From contig OZ253462.1 in the NCBI GenBank assembly GCA_965261395.1, positions 3,744,001 through 3,808,000 on the forward strand: a stretch of 64,000 bases of DNA, in the 5' to 3' direction. Below the pieces are notes generated by a model that saw only the letters and a program-made list of their open reading frames with translations, was not told where the DNA came from and did no database searches. Positions 1 to 28,286 of the stretch are shown here, piece after piece (positions within the stretch are counted from its first letter, which is position 1; each line of letters opens with the position of its first letter). A program made the translations under genes and the position numbers. This stretch comes from Candidatus Latescibacterota bacterium. Lineage in GTDB: Bacteria > Latescibacterota > UBA2968 > UBA8231.

Positions 1-1679
1 AGACCCCGAGCGCGCTGGTCGCCGACCTGCTGGGTGACTCCGTTGTCGTCGGGGATGGCGATGTGCTCTTTGGCGAGGTTGAAGACGGCGAAGTTGGCGT
101 TGAGCTTGCCGTCGAGCAGCGCGGCTTTGGCCCCGATTTCGTATTGGGTGCTTTCCTCGGCGTCGCGGTCGCCGACGACTTGCGAGGAAGGCGGGGCAAA
201 GGCGCGGCTCGTATTGGCGTAGAGCGAAAGGGTCTGGGTGGGGGCGAAGATCGCGCCGAGCAGCGGGCTTAGCTGCCGGTAATCGCGCTTGGTGGCGGTG
301 AGGTCGTCCTCGTAGTCGATTCGGTCGAAGCGGCCCCCGAGCAGGAGCTCGAAGTGGGGGCTGACGATGATGCGGTCGACAAAGTAGGGTGCCAGTGTTT
401 GCGCGGCGGCTTGGGCGGCGGTCGCTTGGTCGAGGAGGGGGACCACGAGGGAATCGGTCCCGGCTTCCGCTGGCATGAAGGGGGCCAGACTCGGCGGCAA
501 TGTCGCGTCGAGGGTGAACAGATCGACGAACGAGAGCAGCGCCACGTCCAAGGTGAAGTCGTCGGTGAGGTTGGCGATCTCGACGCCAAAGAGGAGCTGG
601 TGCTCGATACCGCTGGTTTGCAACTCCAGCAGGCCTTCGAGTTGGTTGCCGACGATCCGCTGTTGGTCGTCGAGGTCGAGCAACGTGCGGGCGAGGTCCA
701 GCGAACCGGCTGCGTTGGGGAAGGCCCCGTTGAAGAGGGTGCCCTGCGAGGGCCAGTCGAGGCTGGTGTAGTAGAGTTTGTCGCGCAAAGTGAAATTAGG
801 CGTTAGATGCCATTCATAATTGGCGCGAAAGCGCAGGATGGTCTGTTCGGAAAGGTCGAAAGGCGACTGGTAGGAACGGGTGCGCGGCACATCGGGCAGC
901 GCGCCGCCGACGATGGGCAGCCCCGAGTCGGACTGATGTTCGCTCGTCAAATACTCAAAGTCGAGGTGCAGCGTCGAGCGCTCACCGAGGTTCAGCCGCA
1001 GCGTTGGGTTTACGGCGAGGATCGAGCTGGTCTTGTCGTCGCGGTAGCCTTCCGCTTCCTGCCATAGGGCGTTGAGACGCAGGGCGTGGCCTTGGTCGGA
1101 TAGGGCGCGGCTAGCGTCGAGGGTGGCGCGGTAGGTGGAGAAGCTCCCTAAGGAGGCGTTGATGCGGGCGAAGTCGCTCGCCGGGTCTGGCCGTTTGCGG
1201 ACGAGGTTGATGGTGCCCGACAGCGGGTTGCCGCCGTAGAGAAAGGCACCGGGGCCTTTGAGAGCTTCGACGCGGTCCACATTGTAGAGCTGGTAGAAGG
1301 TCGCTTCGGGTTCAGGGACCCCGTCGGAGAGCACCAAGCCGTTGGCGAGCGAGTCGAAGCCGCGCAGGTAGAACATATCGTGGACGCCGAAATTGGTGTG
1401 GACGCCGACGCCACTGACATTGGCTAACGCGTCGCTGAGGGTCGCGCCGTCCTGCGTTTCGATCAGGGCTTGGGGGACGATCCCGACGCTTAAGGGGGTC
1501 TTGCGCAGGGGCAGTGGCATTTTGGTGGCGATGGCGTTGGCGCGGGGGATGGCTAGGCGCGAGCCGGTGACGATGGTCTCGTCGACGACGTGGAGTGAGT
1601 CGTCGGCGCTCTGAGCGTGGACGAGGGAGGTCGTCAGCGATAAGGCAAAAACCAGCAGCATACCGTGCAGCTTTTTCAT
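1..1679 (-). CDS. TonB-dependent receptor (3' end outside window)
   Basis: Not in the ORF track. Manual translation from ATG 1679 gives MKKLHGMLLVFALSLTTSLVHAQ (signal), ETIVTG (TonB box) and plug motifs YLRGF and VDRVEALKGPGAFLYGGNPLSGTINLVRK. ATGA overlap with the upstream gene's stop. Confidence 0.9.
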   Translation of the reverse strand, partial: MKKLHGMLLVFALSLTTSLVHAQSADDSLHVVDETIVTGSRLAIPRANAIATKMPLPLRKTPLSVGIVPQALIETQDGATLSDALANVSGVGVHTNFGVHDMFYLRGFDSLANGLVLSDGVPEPEATFYQLYNVDRVEALKGPGAFLYGGNPLSGTINLVRKRPDPASDFARINASLGSFSTYRATLDASRALSDQGHALRLNALWQEAEGYRDDKTSSILAVNPTLRLNLGERSTLHLDFEYLTSEHQSDSGLPIVGGALPDVPRTRSYQSPFDLSEQTILRFRANYEWHLTPNFTLRDKLYYTSLDWPSQGTLFNGAFPNAAGSLDLARTLLDLDDQQRIVGNQLEGLLELQTSGIEHQLLFGVEIANLTDDFTLDVALLSFVDLFTLDATLPPSLAPFMPAEAGTDSLVVPLLDQATAAQAAAQTLAPYFVDRIIVSPHFELLLGGRFDRIDYEDDLTATKRDYRQLSPLLGAIFAPTQTLSLYANTSRAFAPPSSQVVGDRDAEESTQYEIGAKAALLDGKLNANFAVFNLAKEHIAIPDDNGVTQQVGDQRARG

Positions 1680-2920
1680 TGGGTCATCCCCGCTAGGTTT
1701 ATGCGGACGATTTCCTTGCCGTCGCGCAGGTAGAGCCCGCCGTCGGCGAGTGAGGGGATGGTCTCACATCTGCTGCGGCGGAAGACTAGGGCGTTGGCCT
1801 TTTCGACGAAGCCTTTGGGCGTGGCTTCAGCTATGCCGAGATTGCCGCGTTCGCCCAAGATGACGAGGTGGCCGTCGGCGACGATCAGGGTGCCTTTGCC
1901 GTAGCCCCGAGTCTTCCACTTCTCGTCACCGGTCTCGGCGTCGAGGCATTTGAGAATTGAGCCGTCAAAACCGTAGAGATGCCCTTGGTAGTGGATGGAG
2001 GTGGCGAAGTGGTTTTTCATTTCCTTATTGCGCCAGACCTCCGCCACCTCATAGCCCTTATCTGTGGCGGTGACCTCCACCACCGTGCCGCCCATGTCGT
2101 AACCGGAGGAGATAAAGAAGCGATTGGGCGGGATAAAAACCGGGGTGGCGGCATTGGCGTTGTGGCTAGTCAGCCAGAGATGTTTCCACAGCACCCGGCC
2201 GTGTTGCGGCGCGACCGCGATCAGTCCACCACCAGTAAAAAATACCGCTTGGCGCGTTTGGCCGATGGTGGCGATGATGGGAGAGGAATAGCCCCTCTCG
2301 TCGCTGCCAGCGGTCCAGGCGACCTCGCCGCTAGTTTTGTCAAAGGCCATCAGAGAATGGCCATTCTTACCGCCCGCTTCGATCAAGACGACGTCTCCTT
2401 CGACTAGCGGCGACGCTCCAAAGCTCCGACCGCGCCTGATGCTGTCGAATTCGCGCACTAGGTCGTGGCTCCATTTTTCGGTGCCGAACTGGCTGTCGAG
2501 CGCGTAGAGTATGCCATAGACGCTGAAGACATAGACCATCTTGCCGTCAACCGTGGGGGTGGAGCGCGGACCGTCGCCGCCCTGCCGTTCCGGGAGGTTG
2601 CCGTCGGTGCGGGTGCGCCACAGCACTTCGCCGTTGCGGGCGTCGAGGCAGACCGCGTATTCCGCTTGACTGTGGACGTACATCGTATAGATGCGATCTC
2701 CGACTACGGACAGACCGGAAAAGCCAGGCCCGGCAGGGACCCGCCAGGACTCTTTAAAAGACGGTTTGTCGCCGAACAGGCCCGTCTGCGGCGAGACTCC
2801 GTTGCGGTAGGGCCCGAGCCATTGCGGCCAGTCCGCCCATTGCCAGTGCGACCAATCTTGGGCTAAGGCTGGAAAGGCACACAAGGCGAGGACTAGGGAC
2901 GTACCCAATATCTTCTTCAT
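1676..2920 (-). CDS. Secreted PQQ-like beta-propeller protein (paralog 1)
   Basis: Signal peptide MKKILGTSLVLALCAFPALA, DWPQWLGP motif, repeated LDAxxG...W blades; start set by ATGA overlap. Confidence 0.85.
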   Translation of the reverse strand: MKKILGTSLVLALCAFPALAQDWSHWQWADWPQWLGPYRNGVSPQTGLFGDKPSFKESWRVPAGPGFSGLSVVGDRIYTMYVHSQAEYAVCLDARNGEVLWRTRTDGNLPERQGGDGPRSTPTVDGKMVYVFSVYGILYALDSQFGTEKWSHDLVREFDSIRRGRSFGASPLVEGDVVLIEAGGKNGHSLMAFDKTSGEVAWTAGSDERGYSSPIIATIGQTRQAVFFTGGGLIAVAPQHGRVLWKHLWLTSHNANAATPVFIPPNRFFISSGYDMGGTVVEVTATDKGYEVAEVWRNKEMKNHFATSIHYQGHLYGFDGSILKCLDAETGDEKWKTRGYGKGTLIVADGHLVILGERGNLGIAEATPKGFVEKANALVFRRSRCETIPSLADGGLYLRDGKEIVRINLAGMTQ

Positions 2921-4158
2921 TGGACCGACTCCCGCATGTCGAGGCAGACGATTTCGCTTTCGTCGCGGAGGTAGAGCCGGCCGTCTGCGAGTGAGGGGGC
3001 CGTCCAGCATTTGCTGGGGAAGACCTGGGTGTTGGACTTTTCGACGAAGCCGGCGGGTGAGGCTGCGGCTATGCCGAGATTGCCTTGTTCGCCTAAGATG
3101 ACGAGGTGGCCGTCGGCGAGGATCAGACTGCCCTTGCCGTAGCCCCGGGTCTTCCACTTTTCGGTGCCCGTCTCGGCGTCGAGGCATTTGAGGATCGAGC
3201 TGTCAAAGCCGTAGAGGTGCCCTTGGTAGTAGATGGAGGTGGCGAAGTGATTTTTCATTTCCTTATTGCGCCAGACCTCCGCTACCTCATAGCCGCCGTC
3301 TGTAAGGTTGACCTCTACCACGGAGCCGCCCGTGCCGTAGTCGGAGGAGATAAAGAAGCGGTTGGGCGGGATGAAAACCGGGGTAGCGATGTTGATCTCG
3401 TGGCTGGTCTTCCAGGGGTGTTTCCACAGCACCCGGCCGTGTTGCGGCGTGGCCGAGATCAGCCCGTAACCGGTGAAAAACACCGCTTGGCGCGTTTGGC
3501 CGATGGTGGTGGCGATGGGAGAGGAGTAGCCCGTCTTGTCGCTGCCGGTGGCCCAGGCGACCTTGCCACTGGTTTTGTCAAAGGCTATCAGCGACTGGCC
3601 ATCCTTACCACCGGCTTCGATTAGGACGAGGTCCCCTTCGACCAGCGGCGACGCGCAAAAACCCCAGTTGGGCCTCTCGCTACCGAATTCGCTGACTAGG
3701 TCGTGGCTCCATTTTTGGGTGCCGGTCTGGCTGTCGAGGGCGTGGAGTTTGCCATAGGCGCTGAAGACATAGACCGTCTCACCGTCAACGGTTGGGGTGG
3801 CGCGCGGACCGTCGCCGCCCTGCCGTTCGACGAGATTGTCGTCGGTGCGGGTGCGCCACAGCACTTCGCCATTGCCGGCGTCGAGGCAGACCGCGTATTC
3901 CTCCTCGCTGTGAATGTACATCGTATAGATGCGCTCGCCGACGATGGACAGGCCGGAAAAGCCCTTCCCGCCTTGAACGCGCCAGGCCTCTTTAAAAGAC
4001 AGCTCGTCGCCGAACAAACCCGTCTCTGGCGAGATGCCATTGCGGTCGGGGCCGAGCCATTGCGGCCAGCCCGTTGATTGCCAGTTCGACGAATCTTGGG
4101 CTAAGGCTGGAAAGGCGCATAAGGCGAGGGCTAGGGACGTTCCCAATATCTTTTTCAT
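2917..4158 (-). CDS. Secreted PQQ-like beta-propeller protein (paralog 2)
   Basis: Near-identical to paralog 1 over most of its length; WPQWLGP motif; ATGA overlaps at both ends. Confidence 0.85.
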   Translation of the reverse strand: MKKILGTSLALALCAFPALAQDSSNWQSTGWPQWLGPDRNGISPETGLFGDELSFKEAWRVQGGKGFSGLSIVGERIYTMYIHSEEEYAVCLDAGNGEVLWRTRTDDNLVERQGGDGPRATPTVDGETVYVFSAYGKLHALDSQTGTQKWSHDLVSEFGSERPNWGFCASPLVEGDLVLIEAGGKDGQSLIAFDKTSGKVAWATGSDKTGYSSPIATTIGQTRQAVFFTGYGLISATPQHGRVLWKHPWKTSHEINIATPVFIPPNRFFISSDYGTGGSVVEVNLTDGGYEVAEVWRNKEMKNHFATSIYYQGHLYGFDSSILKCLDAETGTEKWKTRGYGKGSLILADGHLVILGEQGNLGIAAASPAGFVEKSNTQVFPSKCWTAPSLADGRLYLRDESEIVCLDMRESVQ

Positions 4159-5408
4159 TGGACTGACTCCCGCATGTTGAGGCAGACGATTTCGCTTTCG
4201 TCGCGGATGTAGAGCCGGCCGTCGGCCAGCGAAGGGACCGTCCAGCAACGGCTATTGAGGATTTGGGCCTTGCTCTTTTCGCGGAAGGCTGCTGGCGTGG
4301 CCTCGACCAGGCCGAGCTGGCCTTCTTCGCCGAGGACGATGAGCTGGCCATCGGCGACGATCAGGGTGCCCTTGTTGTAGCCCCGGGTCTTCCACTTTTC
4401 CGCGCCGGTCTCGGCGTCGAGGCACTTGAGGATCGAGTCGTCAAAGCCGTAGAGATGGTTCTCGTAGAGGACCGAGGTGCCGAAGTGGTTTTTCATCTTT
4501 TTGTTTTGCCAGACCTGCTCGATGGCGAGGCTGTCGCCGTCGCTCTTGATTTGCAAGACCGCGCCGCCGTTGCCGTCGCTGGTGGAGATAAAAAGCCGGT
4601 CGGGCGCGATGAAAACTGGGGTCGCCGCACTGACGTCGTAGCGGGTCTTCCAGGGGTAGCTCCAGTAAATGCGGCCGTCTTCCGGCGCTAGGCCGGTAAG
4701 CGAATAGGCCGTTAAATAGGCGAGTTGGCGGGTGCCAGCGGCGGTGAAGGCAATGGGCGATGAATAGCTCATCTTTTCGCTGAGGGCGGTCCAAGTGGTT
4801 GCGCCGGTGTTCTTGTCGAGGGCTACGGCGGTGACCGCGGTTGTGCGGTCGATGGCCATGTCGACGACGAAGTTGCCGTTGTGGCCGCCGGCTTCAACTA
4901 GGAGCAGGTCGCCCTCGATTAATGGGGAGGTACTAAACCCCCACCTAGGCACTTCGCTGCTAAATTCGGCGACCAAGTCCTTTTCCCAGATCGGCGTACC
5001 GCTCGCGGCTGCGAGTGCGAAGAGCTTGCCGGTGGCACCGAGTACATAGACGGTCTCGCCATCCACGGTGGGCGTCGAGCGCGGGCCGTCGCCGCCTTGG
5101 GTCTCCTTGTAGTAAGGGCCGGTGCGGTGACGCCAGCGTTCTGCGCCGGTCTCGGCGTCGAGGCAGATGGCGAACTCGTCGTCGCCTTGGGCGAACATGG
5201 TGAAGACCCGGCCGTTGGCGATGGAGATGCCGGAGAAGCCATTGCCGAGGGGAGTGCGCCACTGAACGGCGGGACCGTCGGCCGGCCAGCTTTGCAGTAG
5301 GTCCGTTTCGCTGGAGATGCCGTCGCGCTGGGGGCCGCGCCATTGGGGCCAGTCGGCCGCCTGCGCAGCGGCGGTCAAGAGCAGCAGAAGTGAAATTGCG
5401 GTTTTCAA
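4155..5408 (-). CDS. Secreted PQQ-like beta-propeller protein (paralog 3)
   Basis: Signal peptide, DWPQWRGPQRDG motif, propeller blades; TTG start after AGGAGG. Confidence 0.85.
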   Translation of the reverse strand: MKTAISLLLLLTAAAQAADWPQWRGPQRDGISSETDLLQSWPADGPAVQWRTPLGNGFSGISIANGRVFTMFAQGDDEFAICLDAETGAERWRHRTGPYYKETQGGDGPRSTPTVDGETVYVLGATGKLFALAAASGTPIWEKDLVAEFSSEVPRWGFSTSPLIEGDLLLVEAGGHNGNFVVDMAIDRTTAVTAVALDKNTGATTWTALSEKMSYSSPIAFTAAGTRQLAYLTAYSLTGLAPEDGRIYWSYPWKTRYDVSAATPVFIAPDRLFISTSDGNGGAVLQIKSDGDSLAIEQVWQNKKMKNHFGTSVLYENHLYGFDDSILKCLDAETGAEKWKTRGYNKGTLIVADGQLIVLGEEGQLGLVEATPAAFREKSKAQILNSRCWTVPSLADGRLYIRDESEIVCLNMRESVQ

Positions 5409-5421
5409 ATGTGCCTCCTAC

Positions 5422-6759
5422 TTAGGTATAGCGTGCGTTGCGGTATTGGGTTTGGTAAAAGTCGGGTAATAGCTGATCAACGCGCATGAGGCCCTCGTCG
5501 GTCAAGGTGACTGAGTCTGTGTCGAAATGGAGCATGCCTTCGTCGCGGAGGCCGCTGAGTGCAGCGGCGAAGTGGGCGACGATATCGACTCCGAATTTGG
5601 CGCGAAAATACGCAGTGTCGAGCGCGCCTAGTTTGAGCTGTAGGATCACCTCGCGGGTGAGCTGCTCTTCGCGGTCGGCGGCGAAGGCCCGGTGGATGGG
5701 GAGGTCGCCGCGGTCGATGGCGGCGAGGTAGTCGTCCCACTGTGGCGCGTTCTGATAGTGGACGCCGCTTAGATGCGAGAAGGAGGCGACGCCAGTGCCG
5801 ATCATGTCTTGGCCGGTCCACACGGCGTCGCGGTACACGAAGCGGGCGTCGGGCGTTTTCTTCATCGTATAGGCGCTCGAACGCACGTATCCAGCGGCGG
5901 CCAATTGCTCGAAGGCATAGGCGTGCCAGGCGCGCTTGGTTTTCCAGTCGGCCAAGGCCAGCGGCGCGCCGTCGCCAGCGAGCAGATCCTTGGAATAGAC
6001 CGTGTTGTAGGGCAGCTCCATCTGATAGACGGTGACGCTGTCGGGGTCGAACTCAATGGTCTTTTGCACGGTCTGACGCCAGCTCGGCCAGGTCTCGCCG
6101 ACCATGCCGGCGATCAGATCGACGTTGACCTGATCGAAGTCGAGCGCGTGGATCCAAGGCATGACTTGGTAGATTTCCTTGCTGACGTGGGCGCGGCCGT
6201 TGTGGCGCAGAATCTCGTCGTCGAGGTTTTCTATGCCTAGGCTGAGGCGAGTGACGCCGATGTCGCGGATGGCTTCTAATTTGGCTTGGGTTAGGGTGCC
6301 AGGCTCGCACTCAAAGGCGATTTCGTCGGCACGGTCCCAAGGCAGGGCGTCTTTGAGGCGCTGGACTAAGGAGCGCAGGTGGCGCGAGCTGATGTAGGAG
6401 GGGGTGCCGCCGCCGAAGTAGATAAAGTGCAGTGGTCGGTCTTGGACCGCTGGCTGTTGCGCGTAGTGTTCCACCTCGCGGGCGAGGGCGTCGAGATAGG
6501 TTTGGATCTGCTGGCTGTTTTTATCCGTGTAAACGCGGAAGTAACAGAACTTGCAGCGTTTGCGGCAGAAGGGGATGTGGAGGTAGAGGCCGAGCTTGGC
6601 GTCGGCGCGCGGCGAGTCGGCGAGTGCGCTATGCGCCTGCGGGATGTCTTCCTCACTCCAAAACGAATAGGCTGGATAATTGGAGACAAAGACGCTGCCG
6701 ACCTCGGTTTCGGTGCGGTCGGCGCGGGTGGTTGCTGGGTCGCTGCCGAGTGGACTCAT
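5422..6759 (-). CDS. HemN-like (class C) radical SAM enzyme
   Basis: LYLHIPFCRKRCKFC (CxxxCxxC), YFGGGTPS, HemN-type C-terminal region. Start inferred at MSPLGS. Confidence 0.88.
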   Translation of the reverse strand: MSPLGSDPATTRADRTETEVGSVFVSNYPAYSFWSEEDIPQAHSALADSPRADAKLGLYLHIPFCRKRCKFCYFRVYTDKNSQQIQTYLDALAREVEHYAQQPAVQDRPLHFIYFGGGTPSYISSRHLRSLVQRLKDALPWDRADEIAFECEPGTLTQAKLEAIRDIGVTRLSLGIENLDDEILRHNGRAHVSKEIYQVMPWIHALDFDQVNVDLIAGMVGETWPSWRQTVQKTIEFDPDSVTVYQMELPYNTVYSKDLLAGDGAPLALADWKTKRAWHAYAFEQLAAAGYVRSSAYTMKKTPDARFVYRDAVWTGQDMIGTGVASFSHLSGVHYQNAPQWDDYLAAIDRGDLPIHRAFAADREEQLTREVILQLKLGALDTAYFRAKFGVDIVAHFAAALSGLRDEGMLHFDTDSVTLTDEGLMRVDQLLPDFYQTQYRNARYT

Positions 6760-7882: not shown

Positions 7883-8015
7883 ATTTTGTTGGTTGAGGGG
7901 TTATGGACGAATTTAAATAAAAGAAGGTAGGAAAATTTTGCTAATTTGGTGGAAGACACCAGCCTTGACCGAGTGTGTTGTAAATATGTGTATATAGACG
8001 TGGATAGAGACTGCA

Positions 8016-9056
8016 ATGTCGGATAAGGGAGGCCCAGTGCTGGCGATTCTCCGGCCCATAGCCCAGATAATCGAATATTACCCTCGGGGTGGCCATATCA
8101 GCGTGGGCACCGTGGCACTTGCGTTCCAGGCTGCCGAGCAGGCACGATCTGGGTTTTCCCACCTGTTCCGCAATCTTGGGCTGTTCTACGAGCATACGAT
8201 CTTCGCCGGGATTCTCTTCCGGTTCCTCGACCTCGACCCCCGCTCAGTTGAAGGGGCACTGGCACCGCCCCCCGCGTCGCCTGTACCAGTCCCCGACCGT
8301 CTAACCCAAGGCATTGAGTTTCGCAACGTCTCCTTCCGCTATCCAGGCTCCGACAAGTATGTGTTAAAGAACGTCTCTTTTACGATCAGGGTGCGCGAAT
8401 CGGTAGCCGTTGTCGGGGAGAACGGAGCGGGTAAGACGACCGTCGTCAAGCTTTTGGCACGGTTCTACGACCCCACGGAAGGCGCTATTTATTTGGAGGG
8501 ACGAGATCTTCGGGAATACGATCTGGCCGATCTACGTCGCCAAATTGGGGTGATTTTCCAGGATTTTGTTCGCTATGATCTCTCAGCCAAGGAGAACGTC
8601 GGCTTTGGTCAAGTGGACCTGTTGGGCGATGCGGACCGGATTGAACGCGCGGCATATGAGGGCGGTGCCTCGGACCTCATCAAGGGCCTGCCGAAGGGAT
8701 ACGACACAATCCTGGGAAAGGAATTCGACGGGGGTGTTGATCTGTCTGGGGGAGAGTGGCAGAAGATCGCGCTGAGTCGCGCGTTCATGTAAGAAGCTGA
8801 GGTCCTCATCTTGGACGAGCCCACAGCCGCCCTCGATGCGTTCGCTGAACGCGATGTTTTCTCGCGCTTCGCCGAACTCACGTCAGACCGCACGGCTATC
8901 TTCATCTCCCACCGGTTCTCCACCGTGCGCATGGCTGATCACATCCTCGTTCTACAGCAGGGAGGGCTTGTCGAGCAGGGGAGTCATGAGCAACTCTTGG
9001 CCCAGAACGACAGGTACGCGCAGATGTTCAATACGCAAGCGAAGCAGTATCGGTAG
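8016..9056 (+). pseudogene. ABC transporter ATP-binding fragment, 5'-truncated with internal stop
   Basis: Walker A GENGAGKTT and signature LSGGEWQK. In-frame TAA at 8790-8792 in ALSRAFM*EAEVLILDEPT. Most of the membrane domain is missing. Confidence 0.85.
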
Positions 9057-9079
9057 GGGCGACCTCTCACAAGTATCGT

Positions 9080-9266
9080 ATGGAAGCAGAAATGTTTGAT
9101 CAGATACAAAGTTTGCTTTACGACGACACTCCGCTAACATACGATGAAGTGCGAAACCTGCTCGTCAGAGCGGGTATACGTGCCGGATGGAACGATGCGG
9201 AGATGGACATTTACAATGAACTTGATCCACGGAGAGACCATGAAGGTCCGACGGGATAGCAGATAG
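9080..9266 (+). pseudogene. Antitoxin-like ORF (59 aa, 9080-9259) followed by a stub of a probable MazF/PemK toxin (MKVRRDSR*, 9240-9266)
   Basis: Manual translation ...AGWNDAEMDIYNELDP resembles small proteins that precede PemK toxins; the overlapping start MKVRR stops after 8 codons. Confidence 0.45.
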
Positions 9267-9281
9267 AAGACCGTATCTAGG

Positions 9282-9742: not shown

Positions 9743-9771
9743 TTGAATGGTTCCCCTGCTTTTTGAGTTTT

Positions 9772-9799
9772 ATAATAAAAATCCTCTAGGCATTGTCAA
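9772..9799 (-). promoter_or_regulatory. Sigma70-like promoter of hicBA
   Basis: Minus strand TTGACA-N16-TATTAT about 30 bp upstream of the hicB start. Confidence 0.6.
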
Positions 9800-19063: not shown

Positions 19064-20243
19064 TCCCGATATACAGAGACTCGTCGGCGACGGCTACGAA
19101 GTAGAAATACGGGCGGGACATCTCGTTCTGCGCCGTATTCCTTATGTGTCAAGCCGGTGCGAGGTACGATATGGGGAGTTAGTCACCCCCATTACAATTA
19201 ATGGATATGAAGTGGGACCTCCACAAGATCACACAGTGTATTTTCGTGGCGAATACCCATGCGATGAAATTGGGAATCATATTGAAGCTATTAGGAATAG
19301 TAGCAATCGCATAGAATTAGCGAATGGCTTGTGGGTAGATCACTATTTTTCCGCAAAGCCTTACGGGAGAGACTACAGGGATTTCCACGACAAGATGACC
19401 CACTATGCTCAGATTTTGGGTCGATATGCTCGGAAGATAGATCCGGGAGCAACAGCACGGTCTGGTCGGCTCACGTTGACAGAAGATCCTAATGACCCCT
19501 TTGTGTACATGGAAACAGCGTCAAGTCGATCTGGAATAGCGAGAATGAATGAGATGCTTGCAAAGGACAAAATCGGGATCGTTGGACTAGGAGGTACCGG
19601 ATCATATATTATGGACTATGTAAGCAAGACACGAGTAGCGGAAATTCATCTGTTCGATGGCGACCAGTTTCAGCAACACAATGCATTTCGTGCGCCTGGA
19701 GCGGCAACCACGGAAGAAATCTCCGATAAGCGGAATAAGGCGGAATTTTACGCAGTAAAATACAGCGTAATGAGAAAGGGAATTGTCGCGCATCCAATAT
19801 ATATACAGCAAAACGATATAGATAAGCTAGTATGTTTGGATTTTGTTTTTGTGTCAATAGATGACAATTCAACAAAGCAGTGGTTGTTGCCCTTACTGGA
19901 GAAGAGGGAGATTCCTTTCATTGATGTAGGAATGGGAATTGAGAAGACTGATGAGAAGCTCTTGGGTATCATACGCACAAGCCTAAGTACACCGACAAAC
20001 GGGCTTTATGCGCCTCAAAAGAAAAAAGCATACGCGGATCTAGGTCAGCACGATGTTGGAGAGTACGAGCGGAATGTACAAATTGTCGAGCTAAACGCGT
20101 TAAATGCCGCCCTTGCTGTTATAAAATGGAAGAAATGGAGAGGCTTTTATCTTGATCTAGAAGGAGAGATACAAAGCACCTATACAGTGGATGGCAATCA
20201 TTTGGTGAACAGTGGTGAAAGGGCAATTGCTCCGATATCATGA
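19038..20243 (+). CDS. E2-like (DUF6791-like) plus ThiF/E1 fusion
   Basis: N-terminal DHTVYFRGEYPC; C-terminal IVGLGGTGS, LFDGD, HNAFR, FIDVGMG. Confidence 0.82.
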   Translation: MLHELISRNPDIQRLVGDGYEVEIRAGHLVLRRIPYVSSRCEVRYGELVTPITINGYEVGPPQDHTVYFRGEYPCDEIGNHIEAIRNSSNRIELANGLWVDHYFSAKPYGRDYRDFHDKMTHYAQILGRYARKIDPGATARSGRLTLTEDPNDPFVYMETASSRSGIARMNEMLAKDKIGIVGLGGTGSYIMDYVSKTRVAEIHLFDGDQFQQHNAFRAPGAATTEEISDKRNKAEFYAVKYSVMRKGIVAHPIYIQQNDIDKLVCLDFVFVSIDDNSTKQWLLPLLEKREIPFIDVGMGIEKTDEKLLGIIRTSLSTPTNGLYAPQKKKAYADLGQHDVGEYERNVQIVELNALNAALAVIKWKKWRGFYLDLEGEIQSTYTVDGNHLVNSGERAIAPIS

Positions 20244-20671
20244 ACATGCATCATGAATTTGTTGAGTACATACCGGAGGAGATAAGCAACGGGATCTTGT
20301 ATGTCTCGATTCCGTATGGGACCGTGGTTCACAAGTGTGCATGTGGGTGCGGAGAAGAAGTCGTGACACCTTTAGGTCCTGCAGAGTGGAAGTTTACATA
20401 CAATGGTAAAACAATATCTCTGTATCCGTCGGTAGGCAACTGGAGTTTCGCTTGCAGATCACACTACTGGATAAGCGAGAGTGAAGTCCAGTGGGCCAGA
20501 GCATTCTCAATGGAAGAGGTATTGGAAGCCCGGAAGAAGGCGAAACAGCTCCGAAAGCGGATGTACGGCCCGATCTCGGAAGCGAAGAGAGATACTACAC
20601 AGGAGACGACGAGGGAAAATCGTTTCGTTGCGATGGCGGTAAAGTTGTGGAAAAGAATGTGGAAGAGATAG
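20240..20671 (+). CDS. DUF6527-like Cys/His-rich metal-binding protein
   Basis: HKCACGCG, LYPSVGNW, CRSHYWI; ATGA-coupled to the E2-E1 gene. Confidence 0.75.
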   Translation: MNMHHEFVEYIPEEISNGILYVSIPYGTVVHKCACGCGEEVVTPLGPAEWKFTYNGKTISLYPSVGNWSFACRSHYWISESEVQWARAFSMEEVLEARKKAKQLRKRMYGPISEAKRDTTQETTRENRFVAMAVKLWKRMWKR

Positions 20672-20703
20672 TTGAGTCGCTGTCGGGTGGTCAAGAGCTA
20701 TAA

Positions 20704-21231
20704 ATGGACGAAATAGATCAGACAAAGGCGGATTCGGTGTCGGACTCTACAGACGAGTTGTGTGACGCGATCACCATCGCACGAGAGCGGTTACGCAAAT
20801 ACGAAGATTATGTAGGTGGAAAGGAGACACGGACCCGTGTGCTCATTATTGACGAGATTCTTAAGGGGCTAGGCTGGGACGTTACGGATCCAAGACTAGT
20901 TAAGATGGAACTTGGAGACAACCGCAGCATAATTGATTACGTTCTAATTGGGGAAGGAGGAGAACACCTCGGGGTGGTGGAGGCCAAGCGGTCAAAGGAC
21001 GTGTTAAGAGACATCGATCGCAGACAAGCCTCGGGATATGCAGTCGAATTAGGTGTGAGCTTTGCAATCTTAACGAATGGATGGCGTTGGGAAGCATGGA
21101 AGGTGGACCAGGCAATAGCTCGAAAGGACGCTATGATTGTGCAGACAAACATCACTACTGGCGACACTATAAATATCGCCGAGAATATGAAGGGTATTCA
21201 CCATTGCTGCCTATTAGCAGGGCAAAGTTAG
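20704..21231 (+). CDS. Stand-alone HsdR_N-like PD-(D/E)xK nuclease
   Basis: ETRTR...ILKGLGWD, IDYVL, VVEAKR, QASGYA, ILTNG.RW. Confidence 0.75.
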   Translation: MDEIDQTKADSVSDSTDELCDAITIARERLRKYEDYVGGKETRTRVLIIDEILKGLGWDVTDPRLVKMELGDNRSIIDYVLIGEGGEHLGVVEAKRSKDVLRDIDRRQASGYAVELGVSFAILTNGWRWEAWKVDQAIARKDAMIVQTNITTGDTINIAENMKGIHHCCLLAGQS

Positions 21232-21270
21232 CGGCGACTTTGGATACACTTGTCGGAGGCTTAAGAGATT

Positions 21271-21708
21271 TTGAGACATCCCCAGAAACGTAGCAAGACG
21301 AAAAGGAAGAGTGCTGTGGCATCGCTAGGTAAGATCAGCGAAGGAACACTCGAACAGATGGCTCAAGACGCCAGATACAGGGCTAGTCCGTACCATAAAT
21401 CCAACCCTGCGGACTGGGGTTTATCCAGACCAAGACCGCGTCCCGACAAGACCGTCTGCGAGGGATCTGGAATCACTTGTTGTTGGGACGCTACCGAGTT
21501 ACTCAAATCCGGCATTCGTCGTGGAATGGTTAGTGAACAAAAACGTGGAGACTGGCCCCAGAATGTATGGGCAGTTGACACCGAAGGCATCGTATATGAG
21601 GCTCAACTTTCTAATCGCGAACTTGGTGAATATCATGGATATCCTATGAAGCATGGCGATAGATTTGCCGAGTTCGTACAGAGCGAATGGGAGAAACGCA
21701 GCCAATGA
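21271..21708 (+). CDS. Hypothetical protein, putative toxin/RNase
   Basis: SPYHK, RPDKTVC, WPQNVWAV, YEAQL and YHGYP motifs; start uncertain. Confidence 0.5.
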   Translation: MRHPQKRSKTKRKSAVASLGKISEGTLEQMAQDARYRASPYHKSNPADWGLSRPRPRPDKTVCEGSGITCCWDATELLKSGIRRGMVSEQKRGDWPQNVWAVDTEGIVYEAQLSNRELGEYHGYPMKHGDRFAEFVQSEWEKRSQ

Positions 21709-23030
21709 CTTTACGGATTAAATCGCGATGGCTATGTAAGGCCGATCAAGATTTCGAGTCCACACTGCAGTCGGCTGAGGACGAAGCGACTTTGGGCGAA
21801 CTCGGCATCCACGTTGGTCAGAAATGCCTTACCCAAGCCTTTGACAGCGAAACTAATACACCACGAGATGGTGCGAACCTTTCGGCATATAGATTGGCCG
21901 AATGGATAGCGTGGCATTGGTGGCGCTTGCGCTGGGAGCCTGCACGACAGCGCCGCCGAGACGTGGATTGGAGTAGAGCTCATGATCTAGCCTGTATTGG
22001 GGGCGGATGGCTCTGGCCGAACATCACCATCAAATCAGATGGCGTTCGTATTGTTTTCGACGTAAGGCCGTCCGAAGTAGTGGAGACGGAACAGCTTCGT
22101 TATACTATGGGTGGAATAGCCACCATTCCAGCCCAGACATTCGAGGAAGGTATTGATGATTTTGTTGGGTGTGTCCTGACTCGCCTTAGAGAATGCACTA
22201 TGAATACGGACCTACACTCGATGTGGAGTGAGTTGAGTTCTGAACGGAAGGATCCGGAAATTTCTCTCTATAGAAGGTTTGAAGCCTATTTAGGCTTTGA
22301 CCCAGATGAAGCCCAACCGGAGTTGATTGAACGACTGATCACAGAGGGCAAGAGCATTGGGATAGAAGCCATATCGGAAGTTGTAGCTGACGACCACCAA
22401 AGCGCGTTAGAATTACATGAAGTGGCACAAGATTTTGGGTTTGACACGCGCCTTGGCGATGGTGTGCAAAGCGTCTCGATATCACAGCACAGTGACCGAA
22501 GTCAAGTCCCCGCTTGGCAGGTGGGAGTAGGAGTTGCAAATCGACTGCGCGAGCAGGAACATTTAGGCAATGACGCGATCCCAAATACTAGACTGGCCGA
22601 ATTATGCGGCATCAGTGAACAAATTCTAACTAGGCAAGACTCAACGGGGGATATCGCTTTTGCCTTTACGCTCGACGACGAGAACAAAGAAAAAGGTCGC
22701 ATTGTACTGCGGTCCACTTGGGAACAGGGGCGTCGATTTGCGGTTGCCCGCCTTCTCGCAGATCGTCTTTTGGACGACCACAACGAATTACTTCATCCGG
22801 CGACCCGAACATACACGTACCGTCAAAAAATGCAGCGTGCCTTTGCCGGCGAGTTCCTTTGCCCAATTCATTCTCTGCGGACTTTTTTGAACGATGATTT
22901 TTCGGACGAAAAACAGCAAGACGCCGCCGAGTATTTCAATGTATCGCCACATACCGTTACCGCACGCCTTGTTGATAACGGAGATCTCGATAGAGAAGAA
23001 TTACAAGACCCGGAAGCACAAGTTGCATAA
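21705..23030 (+). CDS. Protein with C-terminal ImmA/IrrE-like domain lacking HExxH
   Basis: RRFAVARLLAD at the RFTxAHExGH position, QRAFAGEFLCP, terminal HTH AAEYFNVS; ATGA-coupled. Confidence 0.6.
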   Translation: MTLRIKSRWLCKADQDFESTLQSAEDEATLGELGIHVGQKCLTQAFDSETNTPRDGANLSAYRLAEWIAWHWWRLRWEPARQRRRDVDWSRAHDLACIGGGWLWPNITIKSDGVRIVFDVRPSEVVETEQLRYTMGGIATIPAQTFEEGIDDFVGCVLTRLRECTMNTDLHSMWSELSSERKDPEISLYRRFEAYLGFDPDEAQPELIERLITEGKSIGIEAISEVVADDHQSALELHEVAQDFGFDTRLGDGVQSVSISQHSDRSQVPAWQVGVGVANRLREQEHLGNDAIPNTRLAELCGISEQILTRQDSTGDIAFAFTLDDENKEKGRIVLRSTWEQGRRFAVARLLADRLLDDHNELLHPATRTYTYRQKMQRAFAGEFLCPIHSLRTFLNDDFSDEKQQDAAEYFNVSPHTVTARLVDNGDLDREELQDPEAQVA

Positions 23031-23133
23031 GGCTGTAACGTAATGGCCGGGTCCTGTTCCGACCCAAGGATTGAGAGCAGGCGGAGACCCTAGTCCCAAA
23101 CATGAGGCAAAGTTACATTGGAGTCTAAGCAAT

Positions 23134-23346
23134 ATGGACAATGGAAATTATCGAAGCAAGATTGCGGTTGATCCGCAAATTCATTTTGGTAAGCCTTGTG
23201 TTGCAGGAACCCGGATTCCTGTGGTTGACGTTCTCGAATTGGTACGCGAGGGAATCTCGTTTAAGACAATTCTCTCTGATTATTTTTCAGACTTTCAAGA
23301 AGACGACATTCGCGCTTGCATCCATTATGCGATTGGCGCGGCTTAA
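23134..23346 (+). CDS. DUF433 antitoxin (C-terminus possibly clipped)
   Basis: IAVDPQIHFGKPCVAGTRIPV...DDIRACIHYA. Confidence 0.85.
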   Translation: MDNGNYRSKIAVDPQIHFGKPCVAGTRIPVVDVLELVREGISFKTILSDYFSDFQEDDIRACIHYAIGAA

Positions 23347-23613
23347 TCCCACAAATCTATCTGCGGTTCACAAGGAACTGAAACGCGTTTTAGAAACGTA
23401 CGTCTGAATCAGAACTCAAAGAAGCATTTGTCGTTGTCGAGACGGGACGACATCGTTTTCGCAATATTGCTGGACTTGAGGACTGACTGAAACCGCCCCG
23501 TGTTACCGAGGAATCGTTGAAATGAAAAGAGCAAGTTTTTTTTGACTCGCTCTTTTTTAGCAACTATTCTGAAACAGGCGGGCGCAACCACAGAAGAATT
23601 TCTTCAAACGTAG
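23333..23613 (+). pseudogene. Remnants of a DUF5615/PIN toxin C-terminus and a HicA C-terminus
   Basis: LARLNPTN...EAFVVVETGRHRFR (frameshifted) then LATILKQAGATTEEFL*. Confidence 0.5.
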
Positions 23614-24700: not shown

Positions 24701-26124
24701 GGGCTCTCTTCCGCGATGGCAAAGAGGGTGTTGCGGGAGGCGATGTAGAGGACGCCGTCGCGGGCGACCGGGGTGGTGTACACCGCGCTGCCCAGATTGG
24801 TTTCGAGTAGTACTTCGAGCGTTGTGCCGGCCTTGAGCACATCGATATCGCCGTCCTCGTCACCGATATAAACCTTGCCGTCGGCGACAAAGGGCGAGCC
24901 CCAGACCGCGGCGAACGTGTCGTGGGTCCAGTGGTGGGTGCCGGTTTTGGCGTCGAGGCAATAGACGAAGCCGCTCAGGTCGGTGGTGTAGAGCAGGCCG
25001 TCGGCAATGGCGACGGTGGAGATGGTGCGGTTGTAGTGTTCGCCGCCGAAGTGCCAGATTGCGCCTGTCTCAGTGATGTCGCCGGTGCCGCTGGCGTCAA
25101 TGGCCCACAGGTGCCCCTCGCCTTCGCCGTGCTCGGGGTCTTGGCCGACGCCGAGATAGACTATGCCGTCGTGAAAAACGGGCGTGGAGACGAGGTTGTT
25201 GCGGGTGCCGCGGCCGCCCAATTCCCAGACCGAATCCTTGGGGTTGCAGTCGAATTTCCAGATCAGCTCGCCGGTGTCGGGGGCGAGGGCATAGACCCAG
25301 CCGTCGCCGCCGGGGAAGATCACTTGCTTGCGGCCACCAGCCTCGCCGTAGGCGGGGTTGGACCACTGGCCGTGCAGAATCTGGTCGCCGGGCAGGTCGC
25401 TGTCCCAGAGGAGGCTGCCAGTCTGCATGTCGAGGGCGATGAAGCTGGGGGCAAAAGGGGCGGGGATGTGGACGTGGCCCTCGTCCACGCCGTTGCTGGT
25501 CAAGGCGAAGAGCCGGCCATCGACGCCCAGCGGCGAGCTGGTGGCGAGGTTGTGGGGGAAGACGTCCAACTCGGCGATCATGTCGAATTTCCAGATCAGA
25601 TCCGCGTTGGTGGGCGCGGTGGCGGTTTCGTCGGCGATGGGGCCGTCGTTCTCGCCGTCTAAAAATCCCTCGGTGTCGAGGCATACTACTTCGGCGCGGT
25701 TGGAGATATAGTAGAGGCGATCGTCGGCGACAAAAGGAGTGGAGCAGACGCCCTGCTGCGGCCAGTCGTTGACGCGGCCGGCCGGCAGCTTGGGATGGGC
25801 GATTTGCCAGAGGAAGGTGCCGTCGGCGTGGTTAAAGGCCATCACCACCCCGCGATCGCCCTTGTGGTTGGGATCGCGCGCGGCCTGGTTGTTGGTGCCG
25901 ACGAAAATTTTGTCGCCGACGATCAGGGGGCCGCCGTAGGTCTGCGAGCCGAGGGTGGCGCGCCACTTGACGTTTGCGCCGGTCTCAGTGTTCCAAGTGG
26001 TGGGTAGGTTTTGCTCGTCCGAGACTTGGTTGCGCCCGGGCGAGCCGCCCCACATCGCGGTTTGGGCACCGGCGGAGGCGGTTAGGGCAAAGGCGAGGAT
26101 GAGGCTGCGCGAAGCTGTATGCAT
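24697..26124 (-). CDS. Secreted PQQ-like beta-propeller protein
   Basis: Signal peptide, MWGGSPGRN, propeller blades; overlaps both neighbours. Confidence 0.85.
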   Translation of the reverse strand: MHTASRSLILAFALTASAGAQTAMWGGSPGRNQVSDEQNLPTTWNTETGANVKWRATLGSQTYGGPLIVGDKIFVGTNNQAARDPNHKGDRGVVMAFNHADGTFLWQIAHPKLPAGRVNDWPQQGVCSTPFVADDRLYYISNRAEVVCLDTEGFLDGENDGPIADETATAPTNADLIWKFDMIAELDVFPHNLATSSPLGVDGRLFALTSNGVDEGHVHIPAPFAPSFIALDMQTGSLLWDSDLPGDQILHGQWSNPAYGEAGGRKQVIFPGGDGWVYALAPDTGELIWKFDCNPKDSVWELGGRGTRNNLVSTPVFHDGIVYLGVGQDPEHGEGEGHLWAIDASGTGDITETGAIWHFGGEHYNRTISTVAIADGLLYTTDLSGFVYCLDAKTGTHHWTHDTFAAVWGSPFVADGKVYIGDEDGDIDVLKAGTTLEVLLETNLGSAVYTTPVARDGVLYIASRNTLFAIAEESP

Positions 26125-28286
26125 TACCAAACTTTCAGGTTGTCGTAGTAGATTTCAGCGGGGGAATAACCGTAGATGCCGGGGCTGCCGCTGCGGTTGG
26201 GTAGGGGATCGACCGCTTGGATGCTCCACGTGGCCGGCTCCGGCTCGTCGCGGGGCCAGACCTTGCCGCGGATATGGGCTTTATCGCCTTCGATTTCTAC
26301 CTGCAACTTCATGGTGTACCAGACGCCGGGTTCCCAGGCGAAGGGCACGGTTTTGGCCATCCGCAACTCGGCGGCCCAGGTGCGGATCTGCAACTGCTGG
26401 TGGTAGCCCATCATGTCGAGGGTGTAGCGATTCGCGATCAGGCCCATGTCGGGGACGGCGCGGCGCTTCTTGATGCCGAGTAGGTCGGCTTGGATGGTGT
26501 AGCCGGCCATGTCGGGCGCGCCGAGATAGGTGTTGGCGCGGTGCAATCCGCGGGCGGCGGGCGGTTTGACCAGCACCTTGTTGCCTTCCATTTCGCGCAC
26601 CTTGAATTTGCTGCCCGTGCCGACCCATACCGGTGAGGCATCGGCGGCGAACCCCCCGAAGTCTTCGCTGTAGGTCGGCGGTGGCAGCACGGCGATGCGC
26701 GCCTCGGCGGTCAATTCGCCGGCGCTGGCGACGATTTTGCCGCCGCTGGGTGCGTCCGCAAGGACGAGCGTATTGTCGTCGAGTTGGCCGACCGCACCGG
26801 CGAGCGACCATTCGGCTGCGACCGGGCCGATCAGGCGGCCATGCGCGTCGAAAGCTCGGGCGCGGAACGACACGCGAGCTCCGGGCTGGGCGACGACTTC
26901 GGCGGGGATGATTTGCAGATGCGCCGGTGTTGCGTCGGGGGGAGCTTGTTCGCGTGGATAGTTAGCTGCGGTCCCTGCAACCTTGAACTGCGCCTCTGGG
27001 TCGCCGAGGCAGTAAACGCCAGCCTCGGTGGAAAGGTAGATGCGGCTGTAGGCTATGGCTGGCGAGCCGAACAGTTCGGCTGGGCGGCCGTCGGGCATTG
27101 CAATCTCGGCGAGATCGAGGGTCTCGGCGGTGTCGCTGCTAGGGGCGACGATGGCGAAGCGGCCGTTGACCTCTGGTGCGTAGAGCCGGCCATCGGCCCA
27201 CACGGGCGATCCCTTGCCGACGGTGCCGATGTTGTGAATCCAGTGTGCTTGGCCGCTGGCGGCGTTGAGTGCGTGGATGTTGGCCGAGTTGTCGATGATG
27301 TACAAGTGGCTATCGTGGACGACCGGGCTAGTATAACCGGCGAAAACGCCGTCGTAGCGCCAGACCTCGTGGGTGTTGGTAACGTCGCCTTGGCCGGTGG
27401 CGTCGATGCACACGACGCGGCCGAGGGCGGTGTTGTCGAGGTTTTCCTCGCTGTGGGCCGCGTACACCTTGTCGCCGGCGACGACGACCGAGGAGTTGAT
27501 GCCGCGACGGCTGAGCTTGAAGCCCCATACCATCTCGCCGGTGCGGATTTTCACGGCATAGATGGAGCCGTCGGCATTGCCGCCGATGAGCAAGCGGACG
27601 CCGTTGATGGTGGCGACGACGGGCACGGAGTACGTGGTGTCGAGCGGCCGGCCCCCGGGGGTGGCGATCCAGACGACTTCGCCGCTGCGCTTGTCAAAGG
27701 CGAAGTAGCGGTGGCGGCCCGGAGTGTGGCTGCCCCAGTTGGAGCTGAGATAGCTGATGATGACGAGGTCTTCATCGACGACGGGCGTGTGGACGCGGCC
27801 GCCGTAGCCGGAGATGCGCCCGAATTCCTCGGTCAGTGAGCGCGACCAGACGACCTTGCCGTCGCGGTCGAAGCAAAGGAACAGCCCGCTGACGGTATGG
27901 GCATAGACATAGCCGGTCTCTGGGTCGCCAGCGAGGCTGGCCCAGCCGACGCGGTTGAAGGGAATGGTGGTGTGGAAGATGTTGTAGGCGTGCTCCCAGA
28001 GCAGGGTGCCGTCTTGGGCGTCAAAGGCGGCGACGACGCCCTCTTGGGAGATGCCCTCGCCGCGACGGCCGATGACGAATACTCGTCCGTCGAGGACGAT
28101 GGGGGTTGAGCGGCCGGTAAATTCGGCGTGCCAGATGGGTGACCAGGATTTGACGAGGCCGGTCTCCTCGGAGACGCCGTTTTGCGCCGGGCCGCGCCAA
28201 GAGGGCCAGTCGGCTGGGTAGGCGCTGGAAGCGGCGAGCAGGAGACCAAGAAAGGCGCAGGGAAGTTGCATGCGGAGGTTGGACAC
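26124..28286 (-). CDS. Large secreted PQQ-like beta-propeller with C-terminal Ig-like and lectin-like domains
   Basis: DWPSWRGP motif, blades, then a beta-rich C-terminus (WYTMKLQVE..RGKVWPR). Confidence 0.82.
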   Translation of the reverse strand: MSNLRMQLPCAFLGLLLAASSAYPADWPSWRGPAQNGVSEETGLVKSWSPIWHAEFTGRSTPIVLDGRVFVIGRRGEGISQEGVVAAFDAQDGTLLWEHAYNIFHTTIPFNRVGWASLAGDPETGYVYAHTVSGLFLCFDRDGKVVWSRSLTEEFGRISGYGGRVHTPVVDEDLVIISYLSSNWGSHTPGRHRYFAFDKRSGEVVWIATPGGRPLDTTYSVPVVATINGVRLLIGGNADGSIYAVKIRTGEMVWGFKLSRRGINSSVVVAGDKVYAAHSEENLDNTALGRVVCIDATGQGDVTNTHEVWRYDGVFAGYTSPVVHDSHLYIIDNSANIHALNAASGQAHWIHNIGTVGKGSPVWADGRLYAPEVNGRFAIVAPSSDTAETLDLAEIAMPDGRPAELFGSPAIAYSRIYLSTEAGVYCLGDPEAQFKVAGTAANYPREQAPPDATPAHLQIIPAEVVAQPGARVSFRARAFDAHGRLIGPVAAEWSLAGAVGQLDDNTLVLADAPSGGKIVASAGELTAEARIAVLPPPTYSEDFGGFAADASPVWVGTGSKFKVREMEGNKVLVKPPAARGLHRANTYLGAPDMAGYTIQADLLGIKKRRAVPDMGLIANRYTLDMMGYHQQLQIRTWAAELRMAKTVPFAWEPGVWYTMKLQVEIEGDKAHIRGKVWPRDEPEPATWSIQAVDPLPNRSGSPGIYGYSPAEIYYDNLKVW

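Follow-up and report, generated by a model that had tools for sequence, protein, structure and literature searches.

Mycofactocin and pyrroloquinoline quinone (PQQ) systems are biosynthetic clusters with a radical S-adenosylmethionine (SAM) enzyme and a glycosyltransferase, and their presence predicts a large paralogous family of client proteins. In the grixazone pathway, 3-amino-4-hydroxybenzoic acid (3,4-AHBA) is adenylated by GriC and reduced by GriD (PMC10179220), and a phenazine dicarboxylate is converted onward by EhpF-O (PMC3175449). Hydrophobic compounds are extracted by the transporter YbbAP, which makes them available to a partner protein in the periplasm (PMC12646458). For a clade of squalene-hopene cyclase (SHC)-like terpene cyclases from the phyla discussed below, the function is stated as not known (PMC12324236), and a polyprenyl synthase usually lies beside the cyclase gene (PMC7306690). 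Here we describe a system of about 19 genes in a Candidatus Latescibacterota bacterium (GCA_965261395.1; 6.5 Mb, single contig), about half of which lies in the window analysed, a 64-kb stretch of contig OZ253462.1 (positions 3,744,001 to 3,808,000). It joins a probable carboxylate-reduction module and a radical SAM enzyme to a GT4 glycosyltransferase, an ATP-binding cassette (ABC) transporter of type VII and exported β-propellers.

The original prediction, made from the window alone, was that four cytoplasmic enzymes make a small molecule, perhaps a PQQ-like cofactor or ligand for the propellers. We find that the constant core consists of the propeller PQ362, a CxxC-bearing GT4, the type VII ABC transporter and the WPQWRG propellers, and not of the four enzymes. 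The parts belong to known families, and the system as a whole matches no tested known system. New here are the link between aerobic and anaerobic clusters, the finding that the system extends as far as the propeller family does, and its association with a cyclase module. No description of the cluster was found in the literature searched, including a term search of PMC8269204 (subscription papers lay outside the coverage). Five supplements of PMC10632474, on gene essentiality in Planctopirus limnophila, contained none of the terms searched, the presence of the cluster in that species not being established.

Constant core and its two front ends

The eleven genes of the original prediction were confirmed by their coordinates and junctions. 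All lie on the minus strand, in the order propeller, propeller, AMP-binding enzyme, aldehyde dehydrogenase (ALDH)-fold enzyme, iron-containing alcohol dehydrogenase (Fe-ADH), propeller, radical SAM enzyme, three propellers and TonB receptor. Neighbouring genes overlap by 4 or 7 bases at six of the ten junctions, gaps of 13 and 34 bases occur at two, and two are occupied by islands (in order: -7, -4, island of 11,287, -4, island of 1,932, 34, 13, -4, -4 and -4 bases). The predicted extent was too short: eight further co-oriented genes and a seventh propeller gene lie to the left of the window.

The EhpF-like (AMP-binding) gene was used to collect related loci from a genome collection. At least 600 pattern matches were obtained, 595 of which were confirmed and 80 kept; 47 of the loci reach 20 kb. 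A partner gene lies within 10 kb at 74 of the 80 loci (ALDH-fold reductase 55, PQ477 47, PQ720 42, ADH 28, GT4 23, PQ362 22, radical SAM 21). The gene order is kept in Latescibacterota, Poribacteria, Acidobacteriota and Planctomycetota, so that the expected conservation of the neighbourhood across phyla holds. It is near-complete in six loci (L092, L094, L096, L098, L104 and L107; L and G labels denote our loci and genomes), and its front part is intact in Poribacteria and several Acidobacteriota classes. The locus of Bryobacterales, Blastocatellia and Vicinamibacterales reads EhpF-EhpG-GT4-ABC-propeller. Where acidobacterial clusters are split, orthologues of the radical SAM enzyme and the flavoprotein occur elsewhere in four of five genomes and PQ477 in all five.

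Co-occurrence was counted in three phyla. Among 168 genomes of the own phylum, the EhpF-like gene is present in 98 (four extra matches near E 1e-4 were excluded), GT4 in 102, including 97 of these 98, and WPQWRG-type propellers in 106, including all 102 with GT4; the four extras are fragmented metagenome-assembled genomes (MAGs). Five genera of the same family (g2, g12, g15, g16 and g17) lack EhpF-like gene, GT4 and propellers alike. Among 121 Acidobacteriota genomes 32 match, 31 of them at ≥ 58%. The one sample of 221 Planctomycetota genomes comprises 48 with an EhpF-like gene above 50% identity, 20 with a distant EhpF-like clade, 69 with GT4, 47 with the radical SAM gene, 27 with a NapH-like gene, 53 with a DUF116-polyprenyl synthase and 71 with propellers. 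All 48 EhpF-like genomes have GT4, and all 47 radical SAM genomes fall within the 48, so that these two genes travel together as predicted. The propeller-bearing genomes are all 69 with GT4 plus two others (G188 and G254); the remaining 150 have none. The copy number follows as well: 16 to 41 PF13360 matches (E 1e-12) were counted in cluster-positive planctomycetes versus 1 to 6 in negative ones of similar size (5 vs 5, hand-picked). The propellers thus track the GT4/ABC core; the four enzymes stand as a module and not as the whole pathway.

In EhpF-negative genomes, the same core (PQ362-GT4-ATPase-permease-propeller) is preceded by NapG-like and NapH-like genes, a membrane-anchored propeller, NuoEF and GltD-like genes. 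The NapH-like gene is found in all 21 planctomycete genomes that have GT4 and lack EhpF; of 20 planctomycete loci retrieved, 13 show it. Both modules co-exist in five genomes. COX1 is present in 5/5 genomes with only the EhpF module and 0/5 with only the NapH module (hand-picked). The window would carry the aerobic front end of a system with exchangeable front ends. In five anaerobic-type loci (L132 12791-13840 and four others), the gene next to the NapG-like one encodes an NHL propeller that is anchored in the membrane and has a CGCC motif.

Many planctomycete loci of both types additionally hold genes for a GcvH-like protein, CobW, ferredoxin, a radical SAM enzyme, the DUF116-polyprenyl synthase, a prenyltransferase and a terpene cyclase of about 630 aa in which a DxDDTA motif is kept. 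The DUF116-polyprenyl synthase tracks GT4, 51 of its 53 genomes being GT4-positive. The terpene module was absent from the own genome and from 5/5 non-planctomycete genomes examined, which rules it out as a universal partner.

Enzymes, transporter and propellers

The 358-aa EhpF-like protein has EhpF (3l2k) as its sole PDB match, with residues 17-358 aligned to EhpF 22-366 (E 1e-42) and coinciding ends. Its gene is single-copy, with 70-97% identity across the class, and its closest named relative is a Latescibacterota record (95%). In the 465-aa ALDH-fold protein, the catalytic Cys is retained (NGGRSC) and His occupies the position of the ALDH general-base Glu (LHGPG). Among 20 long homologues, this protein is fused to an ADH in 16 and to an EhpF-like protein in two. 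EhpF was the only member of the carboxylate-reductase pairs compared by sequence, and the ALDH-fold protein is putatively EhpG/GriD-like. Because of the EhpF homology, the Cys-bearing ALDH-fold partner, the reductase-ADH fusions and the GriC/GriD precedent, we consider conversion of an acid via the aldehyde to the alcohol the probable chemistry of the EhpF-like/ALDH-fold/Fe-ADH module. The phenazine gene phzA/B (PF03284) gave no match in the own genome, where the positive control was also silent.

Several EhpF-related candidates were set aside or recorded separately. Open reading frames (ORFs) of 833-835 aa suggested EhpF fusions; the upstream part proved to be another frame over PQ477 (checked in L103). 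The distant EhpF-like clade (33-38%) is a separate system, 0/20 of its planctomycete genomes having GT4 or propellers. Two loci, L120 (5176-10436) and L121 (5188-10662), have a male-sterility-type reductase and an MMPL protein ahead of a distant EhpF-like gene (35-36%) and no ALDH-fold partner; this may be a separate fatty-alcohol module. ORFs of about 1000 aa that end in a distant EhpF-like domain and whose N-terminal part has no Pfam match occur in L122 (8705-11827) and L123 (9281-12202; ORF starts provisional). Five planctomycete genomes (G173, G318, G344, G355 and G365) have two EhpF-like paralogues (59-63%) versus one elsewhere, and in L086 two EhpF-like genes stand in tandem around a GT4.

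The radical SAM protein has a HemN fold with CxxxCxxC, a HemN_C domain and a match to NocN (E 1e-26). It scores below the family cut-offs of HemN (TIGR00538, 206 vs 325 bits) and HutW (205 vs 400 bits), and also under those of HemW, ChuW and STM4012. In the alignment to HemN (1olt), GPRYTSYP and RNFQGY, which we take to mark the HemN coproporphyrinogen dehydrogenase, both differ. Fold and motif features are those of class C methyltransferases (ChuW/HutW, NocN), and methyl transfer is putative. The flavoprotein has phenol and pyrrole halogenases as closest structures, and its WFWYIP and FPRK align with 8zop, 5buk and ChlB4; the WxWxIP motif and the catalytic Lys position are presumably marks of flavin-dependent halogenases. 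The Cytophaga-type flavoprotein 3nix, which carries no halogenase label, scores as well as the halogenases, and the quinone-cofactor maturases QhpG and LodB match more weakly. No NCBIfam model scored above cut-off for the window enzymes or propellers.

In its model, GT4 adopts the retaining GT-B fold of MshA/BshA; the R...KG and E-x7-E motifs are kept, with Asp at the first acidic position in this copy. A CxxC, kept by 54 of 57 homologues and not seen in the listed matches, opens the first helix of the model. The permease (1090 aa) has a first periplasmic domain of about 470 aa. PQ362 has an invariant GCDG, with an invariant Cys, and adjoins GT4 in the anaerobic version too. Complex prediction of the permease (1-640) with PQ362 scored 0.40 versus 0.01 for the best control, with contacts agreeing at ≥ 88% and a partner predicted local distance difference test (pLDDT) value of ≥ 87; in the benchmark, 116 of 157 solved pairs attained this mark, as did 2 of 215 mismatched pairs, but only 18 of those solved pairs, and both mismatched ones, did so at 0.60 or under. 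The model weakly suggests PQ362 as a candidate partner of the permease.

WPQWRGP-type starts, named in the original prediction, occur in four of the six as WP(Q/S)W(R/L)GP and are absent from PQ477 and PQ362 (signal peptides were judged by eye). PQa, PQb and PQc arose by recent amplification at this locus (identities of 77% and 55%), other loci having 0-2 copies. PQ720 is a single conserved orthologue with a C-terminal region of about 260 aa without Pfam match, encoded nearly always directly before PQ477. PQ477 is 46-84% identical across phyla and is modelled as an 8-blade propeller (pLDDT 89.6). Its invariant residues are His171, His197, His231, His312, Asp100, Asp309, Glu311, Glu314, Asp402, Glu403 and Arg346 (numbering of alignment A2), and also Trp; by strand order and secondary-structure position, they would lie in loops making one face. 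PQ477 is a candidate periplasmic enzyme or ligand-binding protein. Its nearest structures are YxaL (Z 37.4, root-mean-square deviation (rmsd) 2.1, 334 residues aligned), BamB, Rv3035, tetrathionate hydrolase and PedH (Z 29.5, rmsd 2.5, 378 aligned).

The seven propellers score at best 82.6 bits against quinoprotein models (cut-offs: TIGR03075 480, TIGR04528 650, TIGR03074 833) and at best 156 bits against BamB (TIGR03300, cut-off 285). A comparison of 51 diverse propellers revealed no polar pocket common to the family and, apart from two Arg, no polar invariants. A narrower set of 147 keeps R35, D146, D203, R226, Y257 and R423, with Asp and Arg residues outside the repeat pattern; a site confined to some clades, and some shared ligand, are possible. 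CxxCH occurs in 3 of 150 propellers, and the 55 longer ones picked from these 150 include fusions to ankyrin (15), FG-GAP (5) and a sulfatase (one). At an E value of 1e-30 or below, the family counts 11,093 representatives, which include some members of adjacent families, and the Atlas protein clusters describe the propellers generically as PQQ_2 only. About 16 PQQ_2 ORFs are found in the 6.5-Mb genome, seven of them inside the cluster; a regular-expression result that placed all WPQ propellers of the genome in the cluster was wrong, as one copy is dispersed. The pqqC gene was found in neither the own genome (0/1) nor others (0/5), the positive control being silent too. Five full-length PQQ-dehydrogenase-like proteins (150-186 bits, TIGR03075) are encoded elsewhere in the own genome (G000:C1 181991, 841772, 958785, 961894 and 6062921) and possibly use scavenged PQQ or another cofactor.

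Operon features, islands and neighbouring genes

Coordinates are given in Table 1. The GC content of both islands is below that of the surroundings, no flanking repeats were found at the island ends, and in the close relative L013 the EhpF-like and EhpG-like genes adjoin without the large island between them. A 675-aa ORF call for Fe-ADH was rejected as upstream read-through. Metatranscriptome contigs (three sets, 90-97% alike) span parts of the PQ720, PQ477, EhpF-like and reductase genes; contigs alone do not show transcription, its level or co-transcription, and a stretch without contigs carries no negative weight.

Table 1. Genes and inserted stretches of the system. Genes left of the window carry coordinates of locus L001 (window position = L001 minus 18000).
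Feature	Coordinates	Strand	Basis or remark
PQ720, exported 8-blade PQQ_2 propeller, WPSWRGP start	26124..28286	-	Pfam, synteny
PQ477, exported 8-blade propeller, 477 aa	24697..26130	-	alignment, structure model
EhpF-like adenylating subunit (AMP-binding), 358 aa	23624..24700	-	PDB match to EhpF
Large inserted island, outside the pathway	~12400..23600		unrelated TonB receptor (+), AbiEi, DUF6791-ThiF, DUF6527, HSDR_N, others
ALDH-fold reductase, 465 aa, EhpG/GriD-like by inference	10939..12336	-	fold, catalytic Cys
Fe-ADH, 375 aa	9815..10942	-	start overlaps reductase stop
Small inserted island	~7900..9800		HicAB-like pair (by eye), truncated ABC transporter fragment
PQ362, regular exported propeller, 362 aa	6794..7882	-	invariant GCDG
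HemN-fold radical SAM enzyme, CxxxCxxC	5422..6759	-	Pfam, structure-sequence alignment
PQa, WPQWRGP propeller	4155..5408	-	ancestral copy of local triplet
PQb, WPQWLGP propeller	2917..4158	-	recent duplicate
PQc, WPQWLGP propeller	1676..2920	-	77% identical to PQb
TonB-dependent receptor, 711 aa	1..1679, continuing past left window edge	-	siderophore-receptor subfamily TIGR01783
PaaK-like ligase	L001 16270-17553	co-oriented with cluster	
Flavin halogenase-like flavoprotein	L001 15017-16273	co-oriented with cluster	
SSS symporter	L001 13345-14799	co-oriented with cluster	
GT4	L001 12056-13342	co-oriented with cluster	CxxC-bearing
Inserted stretch	L001, between GT4 and 156-aa membrane protein gene		
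156-aa membrane protein	L001 7635-8105	co-oriented with cluster	
YbgC-type thioesterase	L001 7217-7624	co-oriented with cluster	
LolD-like ATPase	L001 6543-7220	co-oriented with cluster	type VII ABC
Double-FtsX permease, 1090 aa	L001 3286-6558	co-oriented with cluster	type VII ABC
Seventh propeller, WPQWRGP	L001 1976-3259	convergent to permease	

A 67-nt direct repeat (81% identical) lies at 12373-12439, directly upstream of the reductase gene, and at 16253-16319. Within the large island, the second, unrelated TonB receptor (12449-14593, +) is on the strand opposite to the cluster, and the DUF6791-ThiF, DUF6527 and HSDR_N proteins form a low-GC, defence-like cassette (19038-21231, +). The small island comprises a HicB-like/HicA-like pair, identified by eye (9280-9800, -), with a near-consensus sigma-70 promoter (9799-9772), and the truncated ABC fragment (8016-8792). 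Elsewhere in the window are a RES/Xre toxin-antitoxin pair (32732-33765, -) and ORFs that by eye resemble a Pup-proteasome cluster (ARC ATPase, Pup ligase-like protein and proteasome subunit; 48015-54408, +).

Proposed pathway and known systems

We tentatively favour, with slightly less than even confidence, a pathway that makes and delivers a product. The TonB receptor and the SSS symporter would import a scarce (hetero)aromatic carboxylic acid, which the PaaK-like ligase would tether to coenzyme A (CoA). The radical SAM enzyme would tailor the CoA-bound acid in a methyl or C-C step, the flavoprotein would halogenate or hydroxylate it, and the thioesterase would release it. The EhpF-like protein would then adenylate the acid, the ALDH-fold protein would convert it to the aldehyde via its Cys, and Fe-ADH would yield the alcohol, which GT4 would glycosylate. 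The ABC transporter may take this product, which would be amphiphilic, out of the inner membrane in the manner of YbbAP-TesA (PMC12646458) and hand it via PQ362 to the periplasmic propellers; they would depend on it as a ligand, a prosthetic group or cargo. In anaerobes the core is kept behind a NapG/NapH/NuoEF/GltD front end, and many planctomycetes add the polyprenyl-synthase/terpene-cyclase module.

Several points weigh against this pathway. Gene content, order, co-occurrence, folds and fusions were observed, while each chemical step is inferred; the sequence of reactions is a guess that follows precedent in the enzyme families, and substrate, product and activity are predicted. No chemistry that would give the same alcohol is evident in the anaerobic front end, and the core may be shared for different reasons. 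The CxxC of GT4 might mean that it is no ordinary glycosyltransferase. Many loci lack the TonB receptor and the SSS symporter or have a substitute (TRAP in L119, MFS in L117). Most genomes are MAGs, relatives among them are not independent, and cluster-linked copies were the source of the propeller profile (A5), which makes presence, not absence, partly circular. A single PQQ-like redox cofactor is a weakened possibility, because 23 of the 71 propeller-bearing planctomycete genomes have no EhpF-like gene, the 51 diverse propellers share no polar pocket, CxxCH is rare, quinoprotein scores are low and fusions are mainly to ankyrin and FG-GAP. A bolder version, which we rate as improbable, is that the core makes and loads a new glycosylated prosthetic group or redox cofactor for the whole WPQWRG family, the chemistry of its synthesis differing between aerobes and anaerobes and planctomycetes adding a cyclic terpenoid moiety. 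If it were true, the orphan SHC-like cyclases would gain a function.

The tie to the terpene module admits another explanation, in which the pathway makes a lipid or glycolipid of the envelope (an aromatic, fatty or cyclic-terpenoid alcohol glycoside) that the ABC transporter and propellers move or anchor, with no prosthetic use. The polyprenyl synthase follows GT4 closely, often in loci with the DxDDTA cyclase, type VII ABC transporters extract lipids and lipoproteins (PMC12646458), and the propellers resemble YxaL, BamB and Rv3035 and are fused mostly to ankyrin and FG-GAP. We nevertheless consider it unlikely, as neither the own genome nor the five non-planctomycete genomes yielded the terpene module, and a lipid shuttle leaves dozens of dispersed propeller paralogues and the enzyme-like conserved face of PQ477 unaccounted for. 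The anaerobic front end, with its NapG-like, NapH-like, NuoEF and GltD-like genes complementary to the aerobic set, could instead mean that both front ends feed reducing power or a redox carrier to propeller enzymes. The CxxC at the first helix of GT4, conserved in nearly all homologues, would then be a redox or iron-sulfur site; PQ362 has an invariant Cys, and the core would mature the propellers, comparable to the ABC transporter of nitrous-oxide reductase. The aerobic front end, however, consists of tailoring enzymes without a membrane electron carrier, few propellers have CxxCH, and GT4 retains its donor-binding motifs, which makes a redox conduit quite unlikely.

Two importers and a PaaK-like ligase in one operon would also suit uptake and catabolism, with propellers as periplasmic hydrolases or binders that free an acid from a polymer, PaaK activation after import, and ADH and ALDH-fold protein working oxidatively. 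Tetrathionate hydrolase is a cofactor-free hydrolase with a propeller fold, and one propeller is fused to a sulfatase. The adenylating protein, however, is of the truncated EhpF type, His stands at the ALDH general-base position, and the most constant genes are GT4 and an exporter-type ABC transporter. To our knowledge, single-copy occurrence with 60-80% conservation from phylum to phylum is not typical of catabolic operons, and we regard this explanation as quite unlikely too. That common genes of a propeller-rich genome came together by chance has next to no probability: propellers are abundant in some of these phyla and two islands interrupt the cluster, yet nearly half of the PQQ_2 ORFs of the genome are here, 74 of 80 loci keep partners and co-occurrence is near-exact in two phyla.

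Bacteria that are abundant and for the most part uncultured often have the system (98 of 168 genomes in the own phylum, 31 of 121 in Acidobacteriota and 69 of 221 in Planctomycetota). It connects a very large family of propellers, commonly annotated as BamB or PQQ proteins, with one small set of genes, so that a few knockouts could show the role of the family. The swap of aerobic and anaerobic front ends allows a direct comparison by complementation, and the SHC-like cyclases of PMC12324236 are placed in a testable gene context.

Compared with EhpF/EhpG (Pantoea D-alanylgriseoluteic acid) and GriC/GriD (grixazone), the module shares a full-length EhpF homologue without extra C-terminal domain and an adjacent ALDH-fold partner with catalytic Cys. 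It differs in being coupled to Fe-ADH, a radical SAM enzyme, a halogenase-like enzyme, GT4, an ABC transporter and propellers, and whereas those pairs sit in strain-specific antibiotic clusters, this module is single-copy and kept across phyla. With YbbAP-TesA (PMC12646458), it shares a LolD-like ATPase, one long double-FtsX permease and an exported partner encoded nearby; here, the candidate partner is a propeller instead of the TesA esterase, the permease has 1090 aa and there is a tie to GT4. The SHC-like clade resembles the planctomycete cyclase of about 630 aa that adjoins a polyprenyl synthase inside related loci, a likeness by Pfam/NCBIfam, length and context; the cyclase was not found in the own genome, and the covered parts of PMC12324236 and PMC7306690 do not mention a GT4/ABC/propeller context. 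The propellers share the eight-blade PQQ_2 fold with BamB, YxaL, Rv3035 and PQQ alcohol dehydrogenases, but stay below the BamB and quinoprotein cut-offs, are shorter than quinoproteins and have subfamily-specific conserved loops. As in mycofactocin and PQQ systems, the presence of the cluster predicts a large paralogous family, here of propellers; unlike them, it has a HemN-fold instead of a SPASM radical SAM enzyme, a GT4, exported propeller clients without family-wide polar pocket, and an exchangeable enzyme module.

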